64,000 nt of DNA from an uncultured Actinomycetota bacterium (GTDB lineage: Bacteria; Actinomycetota; Actinomycetes; JAHEKZ01): assembly GCA_963718235.1 (NCBI GenBank), contig CAVQYR010000002.1:512001-576000 (forward strand). The letters run 5' to 3'. Position 1 is the first letter of the stretch. Each line of letters opens with the position of its first letter. Below, piece after piece: positions 36,209 to 41,995 of the stretch. A program made the position numbers and the translations under genes. The notes below the pieces were generated by a model. That model made no database searches. It had not been told where the DNA came from and saw nothing but the letters and a program-made list of their open reading frames with translations.

Positions 36209-36949
36209 GTGACGAGGACGAGTGCCCCACGGGCGCTGCAGGCACGGGGGGGCGATGGCGCGTCCCTCGCGCCGCTACCCTTCGGCGTGATGACTGACGA
36301 CACTCACGACACCCACGACGCTGACGGCGCTGCGGGCGACCCGGCCGACGAGAGCATCGAGCAGCGCACGGCTCGCTTCGAGCGCGACGCGCTGCCCTAC
36401 CTCGACCAGCTCTACGGAGCGGCCCTGCGGATGACGCGCAACCCGGCCGATGCCGAGGACCTCGTCCAGGAGACCTTCGCCAAGGCGTTCTCGGCCTTCC
36501 ACCAGTACCGCGACGGCACCAACCTCAAGGCCTGGCTCTACCGCATCCTGACGAACACGTTCATCAACACCTACCGCAAGAAGCAGCGGGAGCCCCAGCA
36601 GTCGATGGCCGAGGAGGTCGAGGACTGGCAGCTCGCCCGGGCCGCCGAGCACACGTCGGCAGGACTGCGCTCGGCGGAGGCGGAGGCCCTCGACCGGCTG
36701 CCGGACAGCGACATCAAGGATGCGCTGAACGAGCTCAGCGACGACTTCCGGCTCGCGGTCTACCTCGCCGACGTCGAGGGCTTCGCGTACAAGGAGATCG
36801 CCGACATCATGGGGACACCGATCGGCACGGTCATGTCCCGGCTGCATCGGGGGCGCAAGCAGCTGCGCACCCTTCTGGAGGACTACGCGATCGAGCGAGG
36901 GCTCATCCCCGCGACCACCGGCGGGGACCAGGAGGAGGAGGGGTCATGA
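36209..36949 (+). CDS. sigR: ECF sigma factor SigR/SigH (disulfide stress); alternative start at 36287/36290
   Basis: [59 protein letters not shown]. Confidence 0.93.
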
Positions 36950-37227
36950 GCTGCGGGAACCCGCACGCGGTCGACTGCTCGAAGGTGCTCGAGACCGTCT
37001 ACCTCTACCTCGACGGCGAGATCGACCACTCCGAGCTCGGGGTCATCCGAGAGCACCTCGACGAGTGTTCGCCGTGTCTTCGCGAGTACGGAATCGAACG
37101 CGAGGTCAAGCAGCTGGTGGCCCGTAGCTGCTGCGAGACGGCGCCGGAGTCGCTGCGGCACGCGGTGATCGCGCGGATCCGGGTGGTGCGCACCGAGATG
37201 ACCCAGGTGGAGTTCCGCGCCGACTGA
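36946..37227 (+). CDS. rsrA: Zinc-binding anti-sigma factor RsrA/RshA
   Basis: [19 protein letters not shown] motif, RSCC..AP..LR; ATGA overlap with sigR. Confidence 0.93.
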
Positions 37228-37265: not shown

Positions 37266-37340
37266 TCAGGCGGCCGGCCGGTTACCGTGGTTGGCCTTCT
37301 TCTTCTTGCGGTCCTTGCGCTTGCGCGAGCTCTTGCTCAT
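37266..37340 (-). CDS. 50S ribosomal protein bL37 (24 aa)
   Basis: Manual translation MSKSSRKRKDRKKKKANHGNRPAA with GGAG RBS. It has the KANHG.RP signature and the rsrA/rshA-adjacent position of actinobacterial bL37. Confidence 0.85.
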   Translation of the reverse strand: MSKSSRKRKDRKKKKANHGNRPAA

Positions 37341-37443: not shown

Positions 37444-38202
37444 TCAGCCGGCGATCCGGCGGTTGAGGGCATCGAGCACCGAGCGGGCTACCGCGTCGGC
37501 CTCGTCGCCTCGGATGACCGCGCTGCCACTGGTCGACTGTGGGCCGATCCGCGGCACGTTCACGACGAGCACGGTCAGGGCCACGCTGTGGATCCCGGCC
37601 TCGATCACCGTGACCGACTCGACCTCGGTCGGCAGCCCCAGCAGCGGCTCGAGGGCCGACAGGGTCGCCTGGGCCACGAGTCGATGACGGTAGGAGGCGG
37701 CTCCGGACCCTGACGCCGCGCCGTCGAAGGTCTCGTCGCCGAAGGCCAGTCGAACCACGGCCTCGGCCTCTGCGCCGGACGTGCGGACCGTCAGCGACGT
37801 GATTGCCGGCCGCACGGTCTCCTCCGAGTCAGCCTCGACGACGTCGTCGCGGACCGGCACCGGACCGGCCTCCTGAGACTCAGCCGCGAGGACGCTCGGT
37901 GCTGTCGGGGTCTGCGAGGTCGGCGCCTCGGCCGGGGGCCGGGTCGCCCCGTTGGGCGGGGTGGCGTCCTCCTCGCCGATCTGGACCACGCTCACGATCC
38001 GGTGGTCCAGATCGATGTCGTAGCGGGTCAGCGCCACCGACTGGACGTCGCGGACGAGCTGCTTGGCGGGCTTGCCCGGGGACGCCAGCACGTGGACCTC
38101 GGTCGGGACCGCTTTGGGGTCGGTGACCACACTGACCGCGCGGATCCCGGGGATCTGGCGCAGCGCGTCCTCCAGGGCGGGCAGCAGACGCAACGTGGGC
38201 AT
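37444..38202 (-). CDS. Conserved hypothetical two-domain protein
   Basis: N-domain EVHVLA...KQLVRDVQSV...IDLDHRIVSVVQ, Pro/Ala/Glu linker, C-domain ending GSAVIRGDEADAVARSVLDALNRRI; strong GC3 bias. Confidence 0.75.
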   Translation of the reverse strand: MPTLRLLPALEDALRQIPGIRAVSVVTDPKAVPTEVHVLASPGKPAKQLVRDVQSVALTRYDIDLDHRIVSVVQIGEEDATPPNGATRPPAEAPTSQTPTAPSVLAAESQEAGPVPVRDDVVEADSEETVRPAITSLTVRTSGAEAEAVVRLAFGDETFDGAASGSGAASYRHRLVAQATLSALEPLLGLPTEVESVTVIEAGIHSVALTVLVVNVPRIGPQSTSGSAVIRGDEADAVARSVLDALNRRIAG

Positions 38203-38256
38203 GAAGGTCAGTCTCTCTCGGGTATGGGTCACGGGGTTGCGCATCGGTCAGACAGG

Positions 38257-38673
38257 TCAGGGGTCGCTGGGCAGGACGGTGAGCCCGGCGACCAGGAGCC
38301 GACGGGGGGTGGGGTCGTAGGGAGCTTCGTCTCCAGCGTCACCCTCGTCGTAGGACGGCCCCTCGTCGAGGACGTCCTCGGTGGGTTCCTGGTCGAGGAT
38401 GTCCTCGTCACGAGCCTCGGCGCGGGCCTGTTCGAGGCCGAGCATCGCGGCCGGAACGGCCGTACGGGCGTGCTCGACGAGCCCTCGCACCGACTCCCGC
38501 TGGAGCCAGCGCAGCCGCCGGGCGGTGTCGGGGTCGAGGTGACCGCTGGCCACCGCCGCCGCCACCTCCTCGTCGAAGCGCTGGGTGGCGACGTCGTCAC
38601 GGACGTCCAGGAGACCGGCGACGAGGTCGCCGTAGGCGGCCGTCCTGGCCGAGCTGCGAGCCGTGTCGATCAC
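38257..38673 (-). CDS. Hypothetical helical protein with an acidic tail
   Basis: GGAGG then GTG; RTAAYGDLVAGLL..R.D.ATQRFDEEV...RRLRWLQRES...PRRLLVAGL. Confidence 0.65.
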   Translation of the reverse strand: MIDTARSSARTAAYGDLVAGLLDVRDDVATQRFDEEVAAAVASGHLDPDTARRLRWLQRESVRGLVEHARTAVPAAMLGLEQARAEARDEDILDQEPTEDVLDEGPSYDEGDAGDEAPYDPTPRRLLVAGLTVLPSDP

Positions 38674-38810
38674 CGGATGTGCCTCCCCCCAACCGTCGCC
38701 CGCCCGCGCAGCGGGCACGCCGCGTGAGGACGAGGCTAGGGCAGCGAGATCGCCGCTGAGCCAGGGCCGGGTACAAGCCTGCGCCATTCGGGTTGGGGCT
38801 AGTGCTTGAT

Positions 38811-38839
38811 GACTATTTCTTATAGTCCAGAAGGACTAT
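38811..38839. promoter_or_regulatory. AT-rich triple-site operator candidate between divergent genes
   Basis: GACTAT (38811)-ttctt-ATAGTCC (38822)-agaa-GGACTAT (38833): two overlapping inverted repeats sharing the middle site. Confidence 0.5.
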
Positions 38840-38944
38840 GTGCGCACGACGGTTCGGGATCGACCTGCCCGGTGTCTTGACGGCACCACCCGTCACACCC
38901 TTCACTTCCGTTCGGTGGCATGTCTGATTTATCCCAGGCAGCCC

Positions 38945-38976
38945 CGGCACAGCACGACGGCACAGCACGACGGCAC
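38945..38976 (+). repeat. 13-bp tandem repeat, about 2.5 copies
   Basis: CGGCACAGCACGA x2 followed by CGGCAC. Confidence 0.8.
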
Positions 38977-38987
38977 TCACCACAACT

Positions 38988-39238
38988 GCACAGGGCGAAG
39001 CCAGGATCGGCAGCATTGGGGGTTCGACCCCGTCGTCCTCGTGACGACGGGCACGAGCTTTGTTTCATCCAGCGGAGCGAATCGCGCGCGAGCCAACCAG
39101 CGGGGCTCGTGACACTCCAACGGAGGTGATTCCCACCGATGAGCAAGATCGTGGCAGCTGTCGAGCGTGCCCTCGCCGCAGGCGCAGGGTGGGCCTGGAA
39201 CTGACCCCACAGCTGCCGATCCTGGTTTCGCCCTTTGC
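38988..39238 (+). ncRNA. Structured leader RNA closed by a 27-bp long-range stem, with internal hairpins and a small ORF
   Basis: GCACAGGGCGAAGCCAGGATCGGCAGC (38988-39014) pairs with GCTGCCGATCCTGGTTTCGCCCTTTGC (39212-39238): 25 Watson-Crick pairs, 1 G-U, 1 mismatch. Internal 9-bp hairpin CCCGTCGTC/GACGACGGG (39029-39051). Confidence 0.55.
39139..39204 (+). CDS. 21-aa small peptide MSKIVAAVERALAAGAGWAWN
   Basis: GGAGGTGA Shine-Dalgarno at 39122-39129, ATG 39139, TGA 39202-39204; below the ORF-track size cutoff. Confidence 0.65.
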   Translation: MSKIVAAVERALAAGAGWAWN

Positions 39239-39260
39239 GCCTTCCCCAGGAGTGGAGCCG

Positions 39261-40715
39261 ATGCAGGCACTGCGCCCCGCGGCGCGCGGCTACATCGCGG
39301 TGGTCATCACCATGGCCGCCGTGGCTGTCGTCGTGTCGATGGCGGCCGCCCTCGGAGTCATCGACGTCGAGATTCTGCGCATCTCCGAGGTTGACGATTT
39401 TTGGCAAACGATCATCGTGCTCGCCCCCGTGTACGTCCTCGCCACCTCCACACCGTCGGCCATGGCGGTCCCGGTGGCCATGATGGCGAACGTCCCGGTG
39501 CTCTTCGCGGCCTACCTGATCGCCGGTCCGGCCGCCGCCGTCCTCGTCGCCGCGTCCGGGCTCCTCGCGTTCACCTCGGTCCCGTGGGTCAAGCGAGGTT
39601 TCAACACCGCCCAGTTCACCCTGATCGGCCTGGGCGCCGGCCTGGTCTACGTGATGCTCGACGGCCCCTTCGCCGAGGACTTCGCGGCGGCCAACTTCGG
39701 ACGGGACATCCTGGTTCCGGTCGTCGCCTCCAACGTCGCAGCGATGGTGCTGAACGGGCTCCTGCTCTTCGGCGTGCTCCGTACCGCCGAGGGACTGTCC
39801 TTCCGGTCCATGTGGCGCACCGTCATCGCCGGCTCGGCCGTGCCCTACCTCGGGTACGGGCTGTTCGGACTCCTCATGGCGGTGCTGTGGTCCGTCGGCA
39901 GCGGGTTCGGTGCGACTCTGGTGCTGCTTCCGCTGCTCATCGCCCGCTGGGCGTACCGGCAGTACGCCGAGCAGCAGCGGGCGTACGAGGCGACCATCGC
40001 CGCGATGGTGCAGGCGGTCGAGACCAAGGACCACTACACCCGTGGACACAGCGAGCGCGTGTCGCGAGCCGCAGTGATGATCGCCCGCGTCCGGGGCATG
40101 ACGGCGGACCGGGTGAACGCCCTGCGCTACGCCGGGATCCTGCACGACGTCGGCAAGCTGGGTGTGCCCACACGTTTGCTGCAGAAGACCGGCCCCCTGG
40201 CCGACGGTGAGTACGAGCGGATCAAGATGCACCCGGTGCACGGCACCGAGATGGTTCGTGGGATCACCTTCCTGGAAGAGGCGTACGAGGGGATCCTGCA
40301 CCACCACGAGCGCCTCGACGGTCTCGGCTACCCCAGCGGTCTGAAGGGCATGGACATCCCCGAGTTCGCCCGCGCCATCGCCGTCGCCGACGCCTTCGAC
40401 TCGATGACGTCGACCCGTTCGTACCGAGGGGCTCGCAGCGTCGAGAAGGCGCTGGAGGAGCTGGACCGCTGGAAGGGTACCCAGTTCGACCCGGCCATGG
40501 TCGACGCGCTCGTGACGGCATTGGAGCGCGAACCGTGGAAGACCACCGCGGTCGTCGTCGACACCGCTGACGGCGAGACGCCGGTCGCCGCGAGCTTCGA
40601 CCACGACGACCCGGGCGCCCCGATCCCACTTGGCAGCGACCAGGCCCTGGCTGCGGCCGCCGAGGAAGCCGAGAGCGCCCAGGTGTCGGCCCTGCGACGT
40701 CAGGACGACGCATGA
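39261..40715 (+). CDS. Membrane-bound HD-GYP c-di-GMP phosphodiesterase (catalytic motifs intact)
   Basis: Multi-TM N-terminus; KDHYTRGHSERV, LHDVGK, HPVHG, HHHERLDGLGYP, ADAFDSM, RSYR; AGGAG RBS. Confidence 0.9.
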   Translation: MQALRPAARGYIAVVITMAAVAVVVSMAAALGVIDVEILRISEVDDFWQTIIVLAPVYVLATSTPSAMAVPVAMMANVPVLFAAYLIAGPAAAVLVAASGLLAFTSVPWVKRGFNTAQFTLIGLGAGLVYVMLDGPFAEDFAAANFGRDILVPVVASNVAAMVLNGLLLFGVLRTAEGLSFRSMWRTVIAGSAVPYLGYGLFGLLMAVLWSVGSGFGATLVLLPLLIARWAYRQYAEQQRAYEATIAAMVQAVETKDHYTRGHSERVSRAAVMIARVRGMTADRVNALRYAGILHDVGKLGVPTRLLQKTGPLADGEYERIKMHPVHGTEMVRGITFLEEAYEGILHHHERLDGLGYPSGLKGMDIPEFARAIAVADAFDSMTSTRSYRGARSVEKALEELDRWKGTQFDPAMVDALVTALEREPWKTTAVVVDTADGETPVAASFDHDDPGAPIPLGSDQALAAAAEEAESAQVSALRRQDDA

Positions 40716-41995
40716 GGTCGCGCTGGTTCGACTCCTCGGCGGGCGCGACGCTCGTGGTGATCGGCGCGCTCCTGCTCGTGGCCGGTGCGGTGATGTCGAC
40801 GAGCGTCCAGGGTCTCGTCCAACCGATGATCGCCCTGGCCTTCGGCGGCTTCGTGGCGGTCGGTGAGCTGATCCGGATCAACCTGCCGGGAGACCGGGTG
40901 ACCGCTCCGCTGGGCGCGGCGGGTGCTCTGGGCTACGCCCTCCTGGAGAGCTTCGACGGGGTCCCGACGCAGTACGACGCCATGCAGGTGATCGCCGTGG
41001 TTGCGGTGGGCATGCTCGTCGGCACCGTGCCGCACGTGGCGGTGGGCCAGCCTCCCCGGCTCGAGGCGATGGCCCGCCGGATCCTCACGACGGCCTTCGC
41101 CGCGGCCATCTTCCGGCCGCTGTACACCTCCGGTGCCCTCGACGGGCTCGAGACGCCGGACTGGCAGCTGCCGGCGTTCATGCTCGTCGTCGTCGCGTGC
41201 AGCGGTTTCGTCGACGCCCTGCTCGCGGCACTGATCCGCAGCAGCCGCGAGCGGCTTCCGTTCCTCGCCGCACTTCGGGACGAGGGGCGCGCCTTCGTGG
41301 GGATCGGCTCGGTCATCGGTGCCACCGGCGTCCTGATCGCGCTGGCCGCCGAGGTCATGGGCTACTGGGCGCTGCCCATCTTCGCGATCCCGCTGCTCAT
41401 CGCCCAGTTCTCCTTCCGCCGGTACGCAGCGATCCGAGCCACCTACACCCAGACGATCCGGGCACTGTCCCGCGTCACCGAGGTGGGTGGGTACACCGAG
41501 ACCGGGCATGCCCGCCGGGTCAGCCAGCTCGCCCTGGCGGTGGGGCGCGAGATGGGGCTGTCGGAGTCTGCCCTGATCGACCTGGAGTACAGCGCCCTCA
41601 TGCACGACATCGGCCAGCTGTCGTTGTCCGACCCGATCCCCGGCGGAGCGACGGTCATGGTCGCGCCGGACGAGCAGCGCCGGATCGCCGGCCTGGGTGC
41701 CGAGGTCATCCGCAAGACGGGGGTCCTGGACCGGGTCGCGGTGATCGTCGAGTGCCAGAGCGAGCCCTACCGCCGCCCAGGACAGCCCCTGGACGCCGGG
41801 ATCCCGCTGGCGAGTCGGATCATCCGGGCGGTCAACGCCTACGACGACCGGGTCGGCGGGTTGAACGACCTCGAGCACCAGCTTGCCGCGCTCGAGCAGC
41901 TGCGGCTGGGCATGGCCTACGACTACGACCCACGGGTCGTGGAGACCCTGAGCCGGGTCGTGGAGCGCAACTCCCGGCTCGGCGTCCAGCCCTAG
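40712..41995 (+). CDS. Membrane-bound degenerate HD-GYP protein
   Basis: Multi-TM N-terminus; GHARRV and MHDIGQ retained; HHE..GYP replaced by CQSEPYRRPG; VNAYDD; ATGA overlap with the upstream gene. Confidence 0.82.
   Translation: MRSRWFDSSAGATLVVIGALLLVAGAVMSTSVQGLVQPMIALAFGGFVAVGELIRINLPGDRVTAPLGAAGALGYALLESFDGVPTQYDAMQVIAVVAVGMLVGTVPHVAVGQPPRLEAMARRILTTAFAAAIFRPLYTSGALDGLETPDWQLPAFMLVVVACSGFVDALLAALIRSSRERLPFLAALRDEGRAFVGIGSVIGATGVLIALAAEVMGYWALPIFAIPLLIAQFSFRRYAAIRATYTQTIRALSRVTEVGGYTETGHARRVSQLALAVGREMGLSESALIDLEYSALMHDIGQLSLSDPIPGGATVMVAPDEQRRIAGLGAEVIRKTGVLDRVAVIVECQSEPYRRPGQPLDAGIPLASRIIRAVNAYDDRVGGLNDLEHQLAALEQLRLGMAYDYDPRVVETLSRVVERNSRLGVQP

Follow-up and report, generated by a model that had tools for sequence, protein, structure and literature searches.

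The window analysed here is a 64,000-nt stretch of DNA from an uncultured Actinomycetota bacterium (GenBank assembly GCA_963718235.1, contig CAVQYR010000002.1, positions 512,001 to 576,000 of the forward strand), and the element in question is a long inverted repeat just upstream of an operon of two membrane HD-GYP genes resembling hdgA and hdgB of Streptomyces venezuelae. This inverted repeat is a conserved + strand RNA helix, designated P1, and it is the closing helix of a conserved leader domain of about 250 to 300 nt which lies before the hdgA/hdgB-like operon in many families of the class. P1, the conserved RNA core and the coding small open reading frame (ORF) that it encloses are all tied to the HD-GYP operon; the function of the helix is what we infer from its anatomy. 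As a whole, the element is a structured mRNA leader with a small ORF, in which P1 is probably a processing helix. The parts of P1 in the window are as follows.

38982..38987 (+): unpaired 5' flank ACAACU directly before P1, conserved.
38988..39014 (+): left arm of P1, purine-rich (repeat search, fold, arm-pattern search, class-wide covariation).
39017..39021 with 39205-39209 (+): inner extension of P1, UGGGG/CCCCA (minimum free energy fold; lineage-specific).
39212..39238 (+): right arm of P1, C-rich (repeat search, fold, arm-pattern search, class-wide covariation).

An earlier sequence-only reading of this DNA had described a 27-bp inverted repeat under selection at the RNA level, and both parts of that claim are borne out. 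Read from the sequence, the 27 facing positions of 38988-39014 and 39212-39238 (register: position x with 78226-x) comprise 25 Watson-Crick pairs, the wobble pair G39000-U39226 and the mismatch C38991-U39235, with a possible extra pair U38987-G39239 at the outer end. A repeat search returned arms 38988-39021 and 39205-39238 (34 nt, 88% complementary), and a 22-nt pattern taken from the left arm, with up to three mismatches allowed, matched the two arms only (chance expectation 0.01; two or more matches in 0/100 shuffles). The minimum free energy fold of 38940-39270 on the + strand includes the stem at -165.3 kcal/mol (z = -5.1, equalled by 0/100 shuffles) and also contains an inward extension, 39017-39021/39205-39209, whereas the - strand of the same interval is less exceptional (z = -2.45, 1/100 shuffles as good). 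Over the homologues the median energy of the P1 duplex is -50.3 kcal/mol. The bases inward of the conserved helix (positions -2 to -6) are paired in about 40-50% of homologues only. Of the 56 distinct homologues, 55 have ACAAC immediately before P1, unpaired with the 3' flank (positions 26-29). Reading ACAACU as a -35 element (TTGACA) was rejected, this not being conserved in family f1.

The covariation in P1 was assessed across the class. The arms were searched without gaps in the 60 loci whose core motif is exact (three others, in which it is not, were excluded) and measure 24-40 nt in 58 of them, the two others, L075 and L095, having arms of 11-15 nt. Pair types were counted in 57 loci anchored on the conserved inner sequence, three having been dropped for want of the anchor motif. 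Positions 0-22 of the anchored helix are nearly all Watson-Crick or G-U, with one pair running U-A in 23 loci, U-G in 15 and C-G in 17, and G-U cells outnumber A-C cells by 56 to 14; because of this excess of G-U over A-C, selection is seen to act on the + strand RNA. In alignment A3, which holds 56 distinct sequences, 19 of the 25 P1 pairs changed on both sides and 4 are invariant, with 93.4% of cells paired, and the internal hairpin P3 described below has 6 compensatory pairs out of 7, with 98.7% of cells paired; these counts are to be read with the caveat that the structure was derived from the same sequences and that kinship among them inflates the numbers. None of 500 shuffles matched the observed value on any of five measures of the A3 structure, and sliding the partner by 1-3 columns lowers the pairing to 33-44%. 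Within the family alone, double changes were seen in 8 of 23 predicted P1 pairs. The P1 arms have no insertions or deletions over 25 positions in the 56 sequences, and recurrent single mismatches fall at helix position 11, the exact middle of the 25-bp helix, and at position 17.

The same data speak to whether the repeat acts as DNA, namely as a miniature inverted-repeat transposable element, as an invertible segment between inverted repeats or as an operator pair. The repeat is perfect enough to pair as DNA, but such readings are hardly credible. The wobble asymmetry just given indicates a single RNA strand. In the 3.17-Mb genome the 301-nt region occurs in full only once, other matches being 54 nt or shorter with E >= 0.018, so the dispersed copies expected of a mobile element were not found. 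The order left arm, core, ORF and right arm, and the strand, are the same in 56/56 aligned homologues, and no strand-switch joints between the arms were found in the contigs of four runs (one DNA and three RNA-library runs), from which rare forms could escape.

The stem and core are a property of orthologous leaders well beyond the closest relatives. With dispersed copies lacking and the stem kept in such leaders, neither of the refutations that the sequence-only reading had set for itself came true. Of 19 further genomes of the family, blastn found the region in 18; it found it in none of 21 genomes that represent 21 other families. A covariance model of the 89-nt core, R1, built from 18 family members, matches 19 of 20 genomes of the order, the single non-matching genome being 76% complete, and 18 of the 19 matching genomes have one match each. 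The remaining genome, G007, gave two equal-scoring core matches on contigs C33 and C61, probably an assembly duplicate and not a second locus. Among 151 sampled genomes of the class, R1 matches 61 at E <= 1 and 54 at E <= 0.02. A full-length HD-GYP orthologue is present in all 54 genomes positive at E <= 0.02, and a further 21 sampled genomes have the orthologue and no R1 match (53 and 20 when the unpublished genomes G050 and G033 are left out). Wherever a distant locus had enough flank (22/22), the next gene after the element, on the same strand, was the orthologue (47-66% identity). Best-stem scores at the carrier loci are 55-76 in 58 of 60 and 30 and 38 in the remaining two. For the R1-negative set, upstream DNA was taken for 18 of the 21 genomes, one of which was too short; in the 17 examined there is no comparable stem upstream of the orthologue (best scores 30-43), and the motifs are absent.

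A pattern scan of a species-level genome collection, which yields names and not a census, returned at least 120 loci, about a third of them true elements by inspection. The 42 true elements picked among the matches listed are all Actinomycetota records, and the true elements among those listed come mostly from metagenome-assembled genomes (MAGs) with labels such as Nanopelagicales, Frankiales and Sporichthyaceae. Most other matches listed seem to be a conserved coding motif read in antisense, which we take to be dnaE-like, and a few seem to be other chance matches. Two MAG records titled Bifidobacterium breve, L141 and L171, carry this actinomycete leader, and their taxonomic labels look doubtful; L141 has the form of a small-genome family with a 13-codon ORF, and L171 a form with a 21-codon ORF.

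Inside P1 the order from 5' to 3' is a variable stretch, a near-invariant strand, the hairpin P3, the motif GUGAC, a strong Shine-Dalgarno sequence and the small ORF. The corresponding features of the window are given below.

39029..39051 (+): hairpin of the variable region, 9 bp (repeat search, minimum free energy fold).
39071..39082 (+): near-invariant strand AGCGGAGCG(G/A)AU (invariant columns in 56 sequences of many families and in 75 distinct core sequences).
39087..39111 (+): hairpin P3, 7 bp, from C39087-G39111 to C39093-G39105, with AGCG in the loop and followed by the conserved GUGAC (covariation).
39115..39125 (+): hairpin CUCC-AAC-GGAG over the small-ORF Shine-Dalgarno GGAGGUGAU, the feature extending to 39130 (sequence, minimum free energy fold).
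39139..39204 (+): small ORF of 21 codons, MSKIVAAVERALAAGAGWAWN (open reading frame; homologous ORFs).

The smaller features of the sequence-only reading are all present: the 9-bp hairpin, CGAGCC/GGCTCG at 39089-39109, the CUCC-AAC-GGAG hairpin and the peptide ORF. The variable region ranges from 14 to 97 nt among homologues and varies in sequence as well, often containing a hairpin. The strand AGCGGAGCGGAU comprises twelve consecutive near-invariant and apparently unpaired bases. The P3 pairs are the top mutual-information pairs among the 75 distinct core sequences, and mutual information adds a covarying pair under P3, at positions 19 x 51 (C-G in 28/75, G-C in 19/75), by which the helix is lengthened. 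The CUCC/GGAG hairpin is predicted within family f1 and is missing from the class-wide consensus. Two further pairings were considered and rejected: that of the invariant strand with small-ORF codons 6-7 (CCGCU), where third positions vary freely, and a competition of the core with the left arm for the right arm, for which a 6-bp match exists only where the right arm is CCGCUC, which is not the case in f1. The variable part of the domain also contains, at 39038-39057, a terminator-like hairpin with CTTTGTTT after it, which is not seen in the closest relative, G001; RNA-library contigs run across this site.

A cmscan of 38000-40000 against Rfam 15 with E up to 10 gave three chance-level matches, none on the element, so the Rfam scan that had been proposed earlier yields no family for it. 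A literature search, the scope of which did not extend to supplements, found neither a leader nor a small ORF described for these genes. The element thus seems undescribed and is absent from Rfam.

The conservation of the core raises the possibility of a riboswitch-like or protein-operated regulator, in which AGCGGAGCGGAU, the AGCGG-bearing loop of P3 and GUGAC would form a binding pocket or protein site controlling translation of the small ORF and thereby the operon, with P1 as a scaffold. We regard this as possible, if doubtful. It would account for twelve near-invariant unpaired bases and a conserved loop across many families, for the covariation of P3 together with the additional covarying pair beneath it and, in f1, for a small-ORF Shine-Dalgarno tied up in a local hairpin. 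As for the genes downstream, they act in the turnover of cyclic di-GMP (c-di-GMP), and riboswitches often control that pathway. In Clostridium difficile, c-di-GMP riboswitches are reported to govern small membrane-associated proteins (accessible part of PMC13724677). Set against these points are the lack of an Rfam match in 38000-40000 and of any conserved alternative pairing that could serve as an expression platform (the Shine-Dalgarno hairpin is a feature of f1 and not of the class-wide consensus), how unusual it would be for an aptamer to enclose an ORF within its closing helix, and results none of which points to any ligand or protein. This regulator reading stays alive because the inner part of P1, ACAACU and the 12-nt strand are conserved in sequence.

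The small ORF has its Shine-Dalgarno sequence at 39122-39130, in the loop enclosed by P1 and not in P1 itself. A homologous ORF was found in 71 of 78 distinct loci under a strict filter, and the other seven have ATG- or TTG-led frames which the filter did not parse. The ORFs are 13-25 codons long. Peptides of 20-21 residues take the forms MKKIVSAVEQFLQSGAxWKW and MSKLVSAVERFLSSGAGWSWH, a hydrophobic form of 24-25 residues is exemplified by MKKIAAVFGGLVALFMSAGAGVYWG, and a 13-residue form occurs in a small-genome family. An invariant Trp codon (UGG) stands 0-2 codons before the stop. In 50 unique ORFs of the 20-21-codon type the entropy at codon positions 1, 2 and 3 is 0.77, 0.61 and 1.12, respectively, and 65% of single-difference codons are synonymous where 24% are expected. 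Judged by this substitution pattern, the small ORF is a translated, coding frame under purifying selection. No match for the 21-residue peptide was found in Pfam and NCBIfam.

With a conserved peptide and a Trp codon near its stop, attenuation of the tna type has to be weighed, in which the small ORF would encode a sensor peptide and the C-rich right arm plus the CUUCCCC tract downstream of it would be a Rho loading site masked either by P1 or by a ribosome paused at the stop codon. The right arm with the following 20 nt is indeed C-rich (median 44% C and 24% G among homologues) and a rho gene is present in the genome. The C-rich stretch is short, however, at about 45 nt, and the spacing does not hold: from the stop codon of the small ORF to the conserved helix the distance is 3-45 nt (median 10), and that from Trp to stop also varies. 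The middle of the peptide is amphipathic to fully hydrophobic, which suits a trans-acting micro-protein better than an arrest peptide, and the downstream genes have no tryptophan link. Mutually exclusive terminator and antiterminator structures were not found either, the only terminator-like site (39038-39057) lying upstream of the ORF and the right arm having no conserved alternative pairing. We therefore consider attenuation of this type quite unlikely.

A locus of the type I toxin kind, in which the mRNA of a small membrane peptide would stay inert, its 5' end paired with its 3' end, as long as it is unprocessed, was another option of the sequence-only reading and appears extremely unlikely. 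Long-range pairing does bracket the ORF and some homologues encode the hydrophobic 24-25-residue peptides, but many peptide variants are amphipathic, the peptide Shine-Dalgarno is outside P1, and the - strand folds less well. The element is also found as one copy per genome with its synteny to the HD-GYP pair fixed in 22/22 loci, and the element and the orthologue occur together in 54/54 genomes.

Immediately downstream of P1 lie the signals and genes of the operon.

39241..39252 (+): CUUCCCC tract, then the AGGAG Shine-Dalgarno of the HD-GYP gene (leader comparison; putative function).
39261..40715 (+): membrane HD-GYP phosphodiesterase gene, hdgA-like (Pfam HD_5, E = 1.9e-37).
40712..41995 (+): second membrane gene, degenerate HD-GYP, hdgB-like (Pfam HD_5, E = 1.5e-8).

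The hdgA-like gene starts at ATG 39261, with its Shine-Dalgarno AGGAG at 39248-39252, and is overlapped by 4 nt by the hdgB-like gene, whose protein is without the GYP motif. Pfam gave nothing credible on the N-terminal membrane halves of the two proteins. In S. venezuelae, HdgA and HdgB have six transmembrane segments followed by an HD-GYP and a degenerate HD-GYP domain, respectively, and no role is assigned to them in Streptomyces in the accessible part of PMC6205966. The N-terminal domain of HdgA is MASE9, proposed to bind ligands within the membrane (accessible part of bioRxiv 10.1101/2021.11.05.467447). In the window P1 ends 22 nt before the HD-GYP start; elsewhere the distance is roughly 20-40 nt, the automatic start calls being partly uncertain. 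The CUUCCCC tract (39241-39247 in the window) is present in 18/18 f1 leaders and before the start codon in several other families, and a small CUUC/GGAG hairpin is predicted in f1; a count of CUUCC in 40 of 56 is inflated, as in some families the motif falls in Leu-Pro codons of the HD-GYP gene.

This is the region in which the sequence-only reading had placed an anti-anti-Shine-Dalgarno switch, with the right arm leaving P1 for the HD-GYP Shine-Dalgarno and the left arm competing for it. The complementarity on which it was built is real in the window (UCCUGG at 39220-25 with CCAGGA at 39246-51), and some families have a pyrimidine-rich right arm able to pair with their purine-rich Shine-Dalgarno. 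The match proved genus-specific, however: over 56 homologues the longest run between right arm and 3' flank averages 6.45, against 6.33 in shuffled flanks, and in f1 the two arms change together next to a Shine-Dalgarno region that remains CCAGGAG. A 6-bp helix is also unable to compete unaided with a duplex of about -50 kcal/mol. Such a switch is highly unlikely.

Among all these readings we tentatively prefer the one in which P1 separates the peptide mRNA from the hdgA/hdgB-like mRNA, either as an RNase III-type processing helix or as an end clamp. Bacterial RNase III requires about two helical turns of duplex, and long-range helices around a functional RNA are its classic substrates. P1 offers 23-25 conserved pairs with no indels, beyond the roughly 20 bp of near-uninterrupted duplex of an RNase III substrate, and the genome encodes the enzyme (TIGR02191, 233.8 bits, cut-off 166.25). 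The reading is favoured because a near-perfect duplex of constant length and RNase III size brackets a self-contained cistron, because there is no fixed ribosome distance and no ribosome-binding site is occluded, those of the small ORF and the HD-GYP gene both lying outside P1, and because RNase III is encoded. The variable distance from stop codon to P1 means that exact ribosome contact is not needed. Cutting by RNase III, or sealing of both ends, would leave the peptide cistron as a stable RNA module of about 190-230 nt, the level of which would be uncoupled from the long mRNA of the membrane proteins. The peptide, for its part, probably works in trans, perhaps on the membrane domains of both HD-GYP proteins. 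Of the functions suggested by the sequence-only reading, the RNase III-type stem is therefore the one with the best anatomical fit, cleavage itself being presumed.

RNA-library contigs lend slight support, those of three metatranscriptome runs together covering 39015-39205, the enclosed part. The individual contigs span 39022-39205, 39030-39205 and 39015-39148, the last with adapter letters at both ends, and they leave the arms, the upstream leader and the HD-GYP start uncovered, a gap in cover which at this low depth proves nothing. The shared end of two RNA contigs at 39205 was considered as a hint of an RNA end and rejected, as the DNA contig of run X1 stops at 39209.

Several observations weigh against a processing or end-clamp role. 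The RNA data are low-depth assembled contigs, incapable of showing ends, strand or level. Sequence, and not pairing alone, is kept in the inner 12 bp of P1, in the ACAACU flank and in the 12-nt invariant strand; neither a simple clamp nor an ordinary RNase III site would require this, and it suggests that there is a specific partner, either a protein or a ligand. The mismatches at helix positions 11 and 17 could equally act against RNase III cleavage. Finally, the absence of the stem upstream of the orthologue in the 17 examined genomes means that the operon can work without the element.

A combination of the two lines of thought may also be put forward, although we hold it to be unlikely: the element could be a new class of sensing RNA, in which AGCGGAGCGGAU and the P3 loop would recognise either a nucleotide signal from the c-di-GMP pathway or a dedicated protein. 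The production of a micro-protein that docks into the intramembrane sensor domains of HdgA and HdgB would be set in this way, with P1 as the processing helix releasing the module. If true, RNA, peptide and phosphodiesterases would make up a single feedback unit, kept by much of the Actinomycetes.

As to where the leader transcript begins, one further feature is of interest.

38877..38906 (+): promoter-like block, TTGACG (38877-82), 18 nt, TTCACT (38901-06), conserved in f1 and visible upstream in other families.

Judging by this conservation, the block is the likely start of the leader transcript and a putative promoter, and the transcript probably starts near 38912. The pattern TTGACG-18 nt-TTCACT has only two occurrences in the genome; a promoter scan gave no sigma-70 consensus at 38877-38906. 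Three direct repeats of some 10 nt (GTtCACACCt) fall within the block in f1 and may be where a response regulator binds. Ahead of P1, the variable 5' leader has a 13-nt unit repeated in tandem at 38950-38975 (CAGCACGACGGCA x2). An AT-rich imperfect palindrome with 17-nt arms (76% complementary), which may be an operator, is found at 38800-38838, on the stretch that separates the leader promoter from the divergent gene upstream.

Further upstream, the divergent ORFs at 38257-38787 (-) and 37444-38244 (-), of 176 and 266 residues, matched no Pfam or NCBIfam family. A SigH-type actinobacterial extracytoplasmic function (ECF) sigma factor gene lies at 36209-36949 (+) with 362 bits, and is overlapped by 4 nt by an RsrA-type anti-sigma gene of the mycothiol system at 36946-37227 (+) with 98.7 bits; the HD-GYP operon is about 2 kb downstream of these two genes. 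At 37266-37340 (-) a Lys/Arg-rich ORF of 24 residues matches the mycobacterial-type 50S ribosomal protein bL37 (36.8 bits, cut-off 30).

The HdgA/HdgB-type membrane HD-GYP pair is widespread in Actinomycetes. The three conserved and apparently unannotated parts before it, that is, the micro-ORF, the invariant RNA core and the 25-bp closing helix, provide concrete handles on the control of this signalling module as well as a candidate RNA motif new to Rfam. The mRNA of a 21-residue peptide sealed in a duplex of two turns is an unusual design, and, if RNase III cuts P1, it would be a clean example of the uncoupling of a micro-protein from its partner proteins within one operon.

Among known systems, P1 may be compared with the bracketing helices processed by RNase III, such as the stalks of 16S and 23S rRNA and the early mRNA sites of phage T7, with which it shares a long-range duplex of at least two turns flanking the released RNA, a constant length and isolated mismatches near the middle of the helix. 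What is enclosed here, in contrast, is an mRNA that has a conserved leader of its own and encodes a peptide of about 21 residues. The sequence itself is conserved in one flank and in half of the helix, and cleavage is a presumption. The tna operon leader, with its Rho-dependent TnaC, resembles the element in having a short conserved peptide with a critical Trp, C-rich RNA after the stop codon and regulated genes downstream, whereas the spacing and the Trp position are variable here, a link to tryptophan metabolism is missing, and the 25-bp closing helix has no counterpart in tna. The type I toxin mRNAs hok and aapA1 likewise have a small, partly hydrophobic peptide ORF bracketed by long-range pairing, but the present element is single-copy, vertically conserved and fixed beside the hdgA/hdgB-like genes, with a Shine-Dalgarno free of the long helix. 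The small membrane proteins of C. difficile under c-di-GMP riboswitches (PMC13724677, accessible part) and the GEMM riboswitches offer a small and possibly membrane-associated peptide behind a structured leader in a c-di-GMP circuit, although the element matches neither GEMM nor any other Rfam family. The hdgA-hdgB pair of S. venezuelae has the same gene-pair architecture as the operon studied here (PMC6205966, accessible part), while the 17 R1-negative genomes with an orthologue, including large ones of 5-9 Mb, carry the gene without the stem and motifs upstream.

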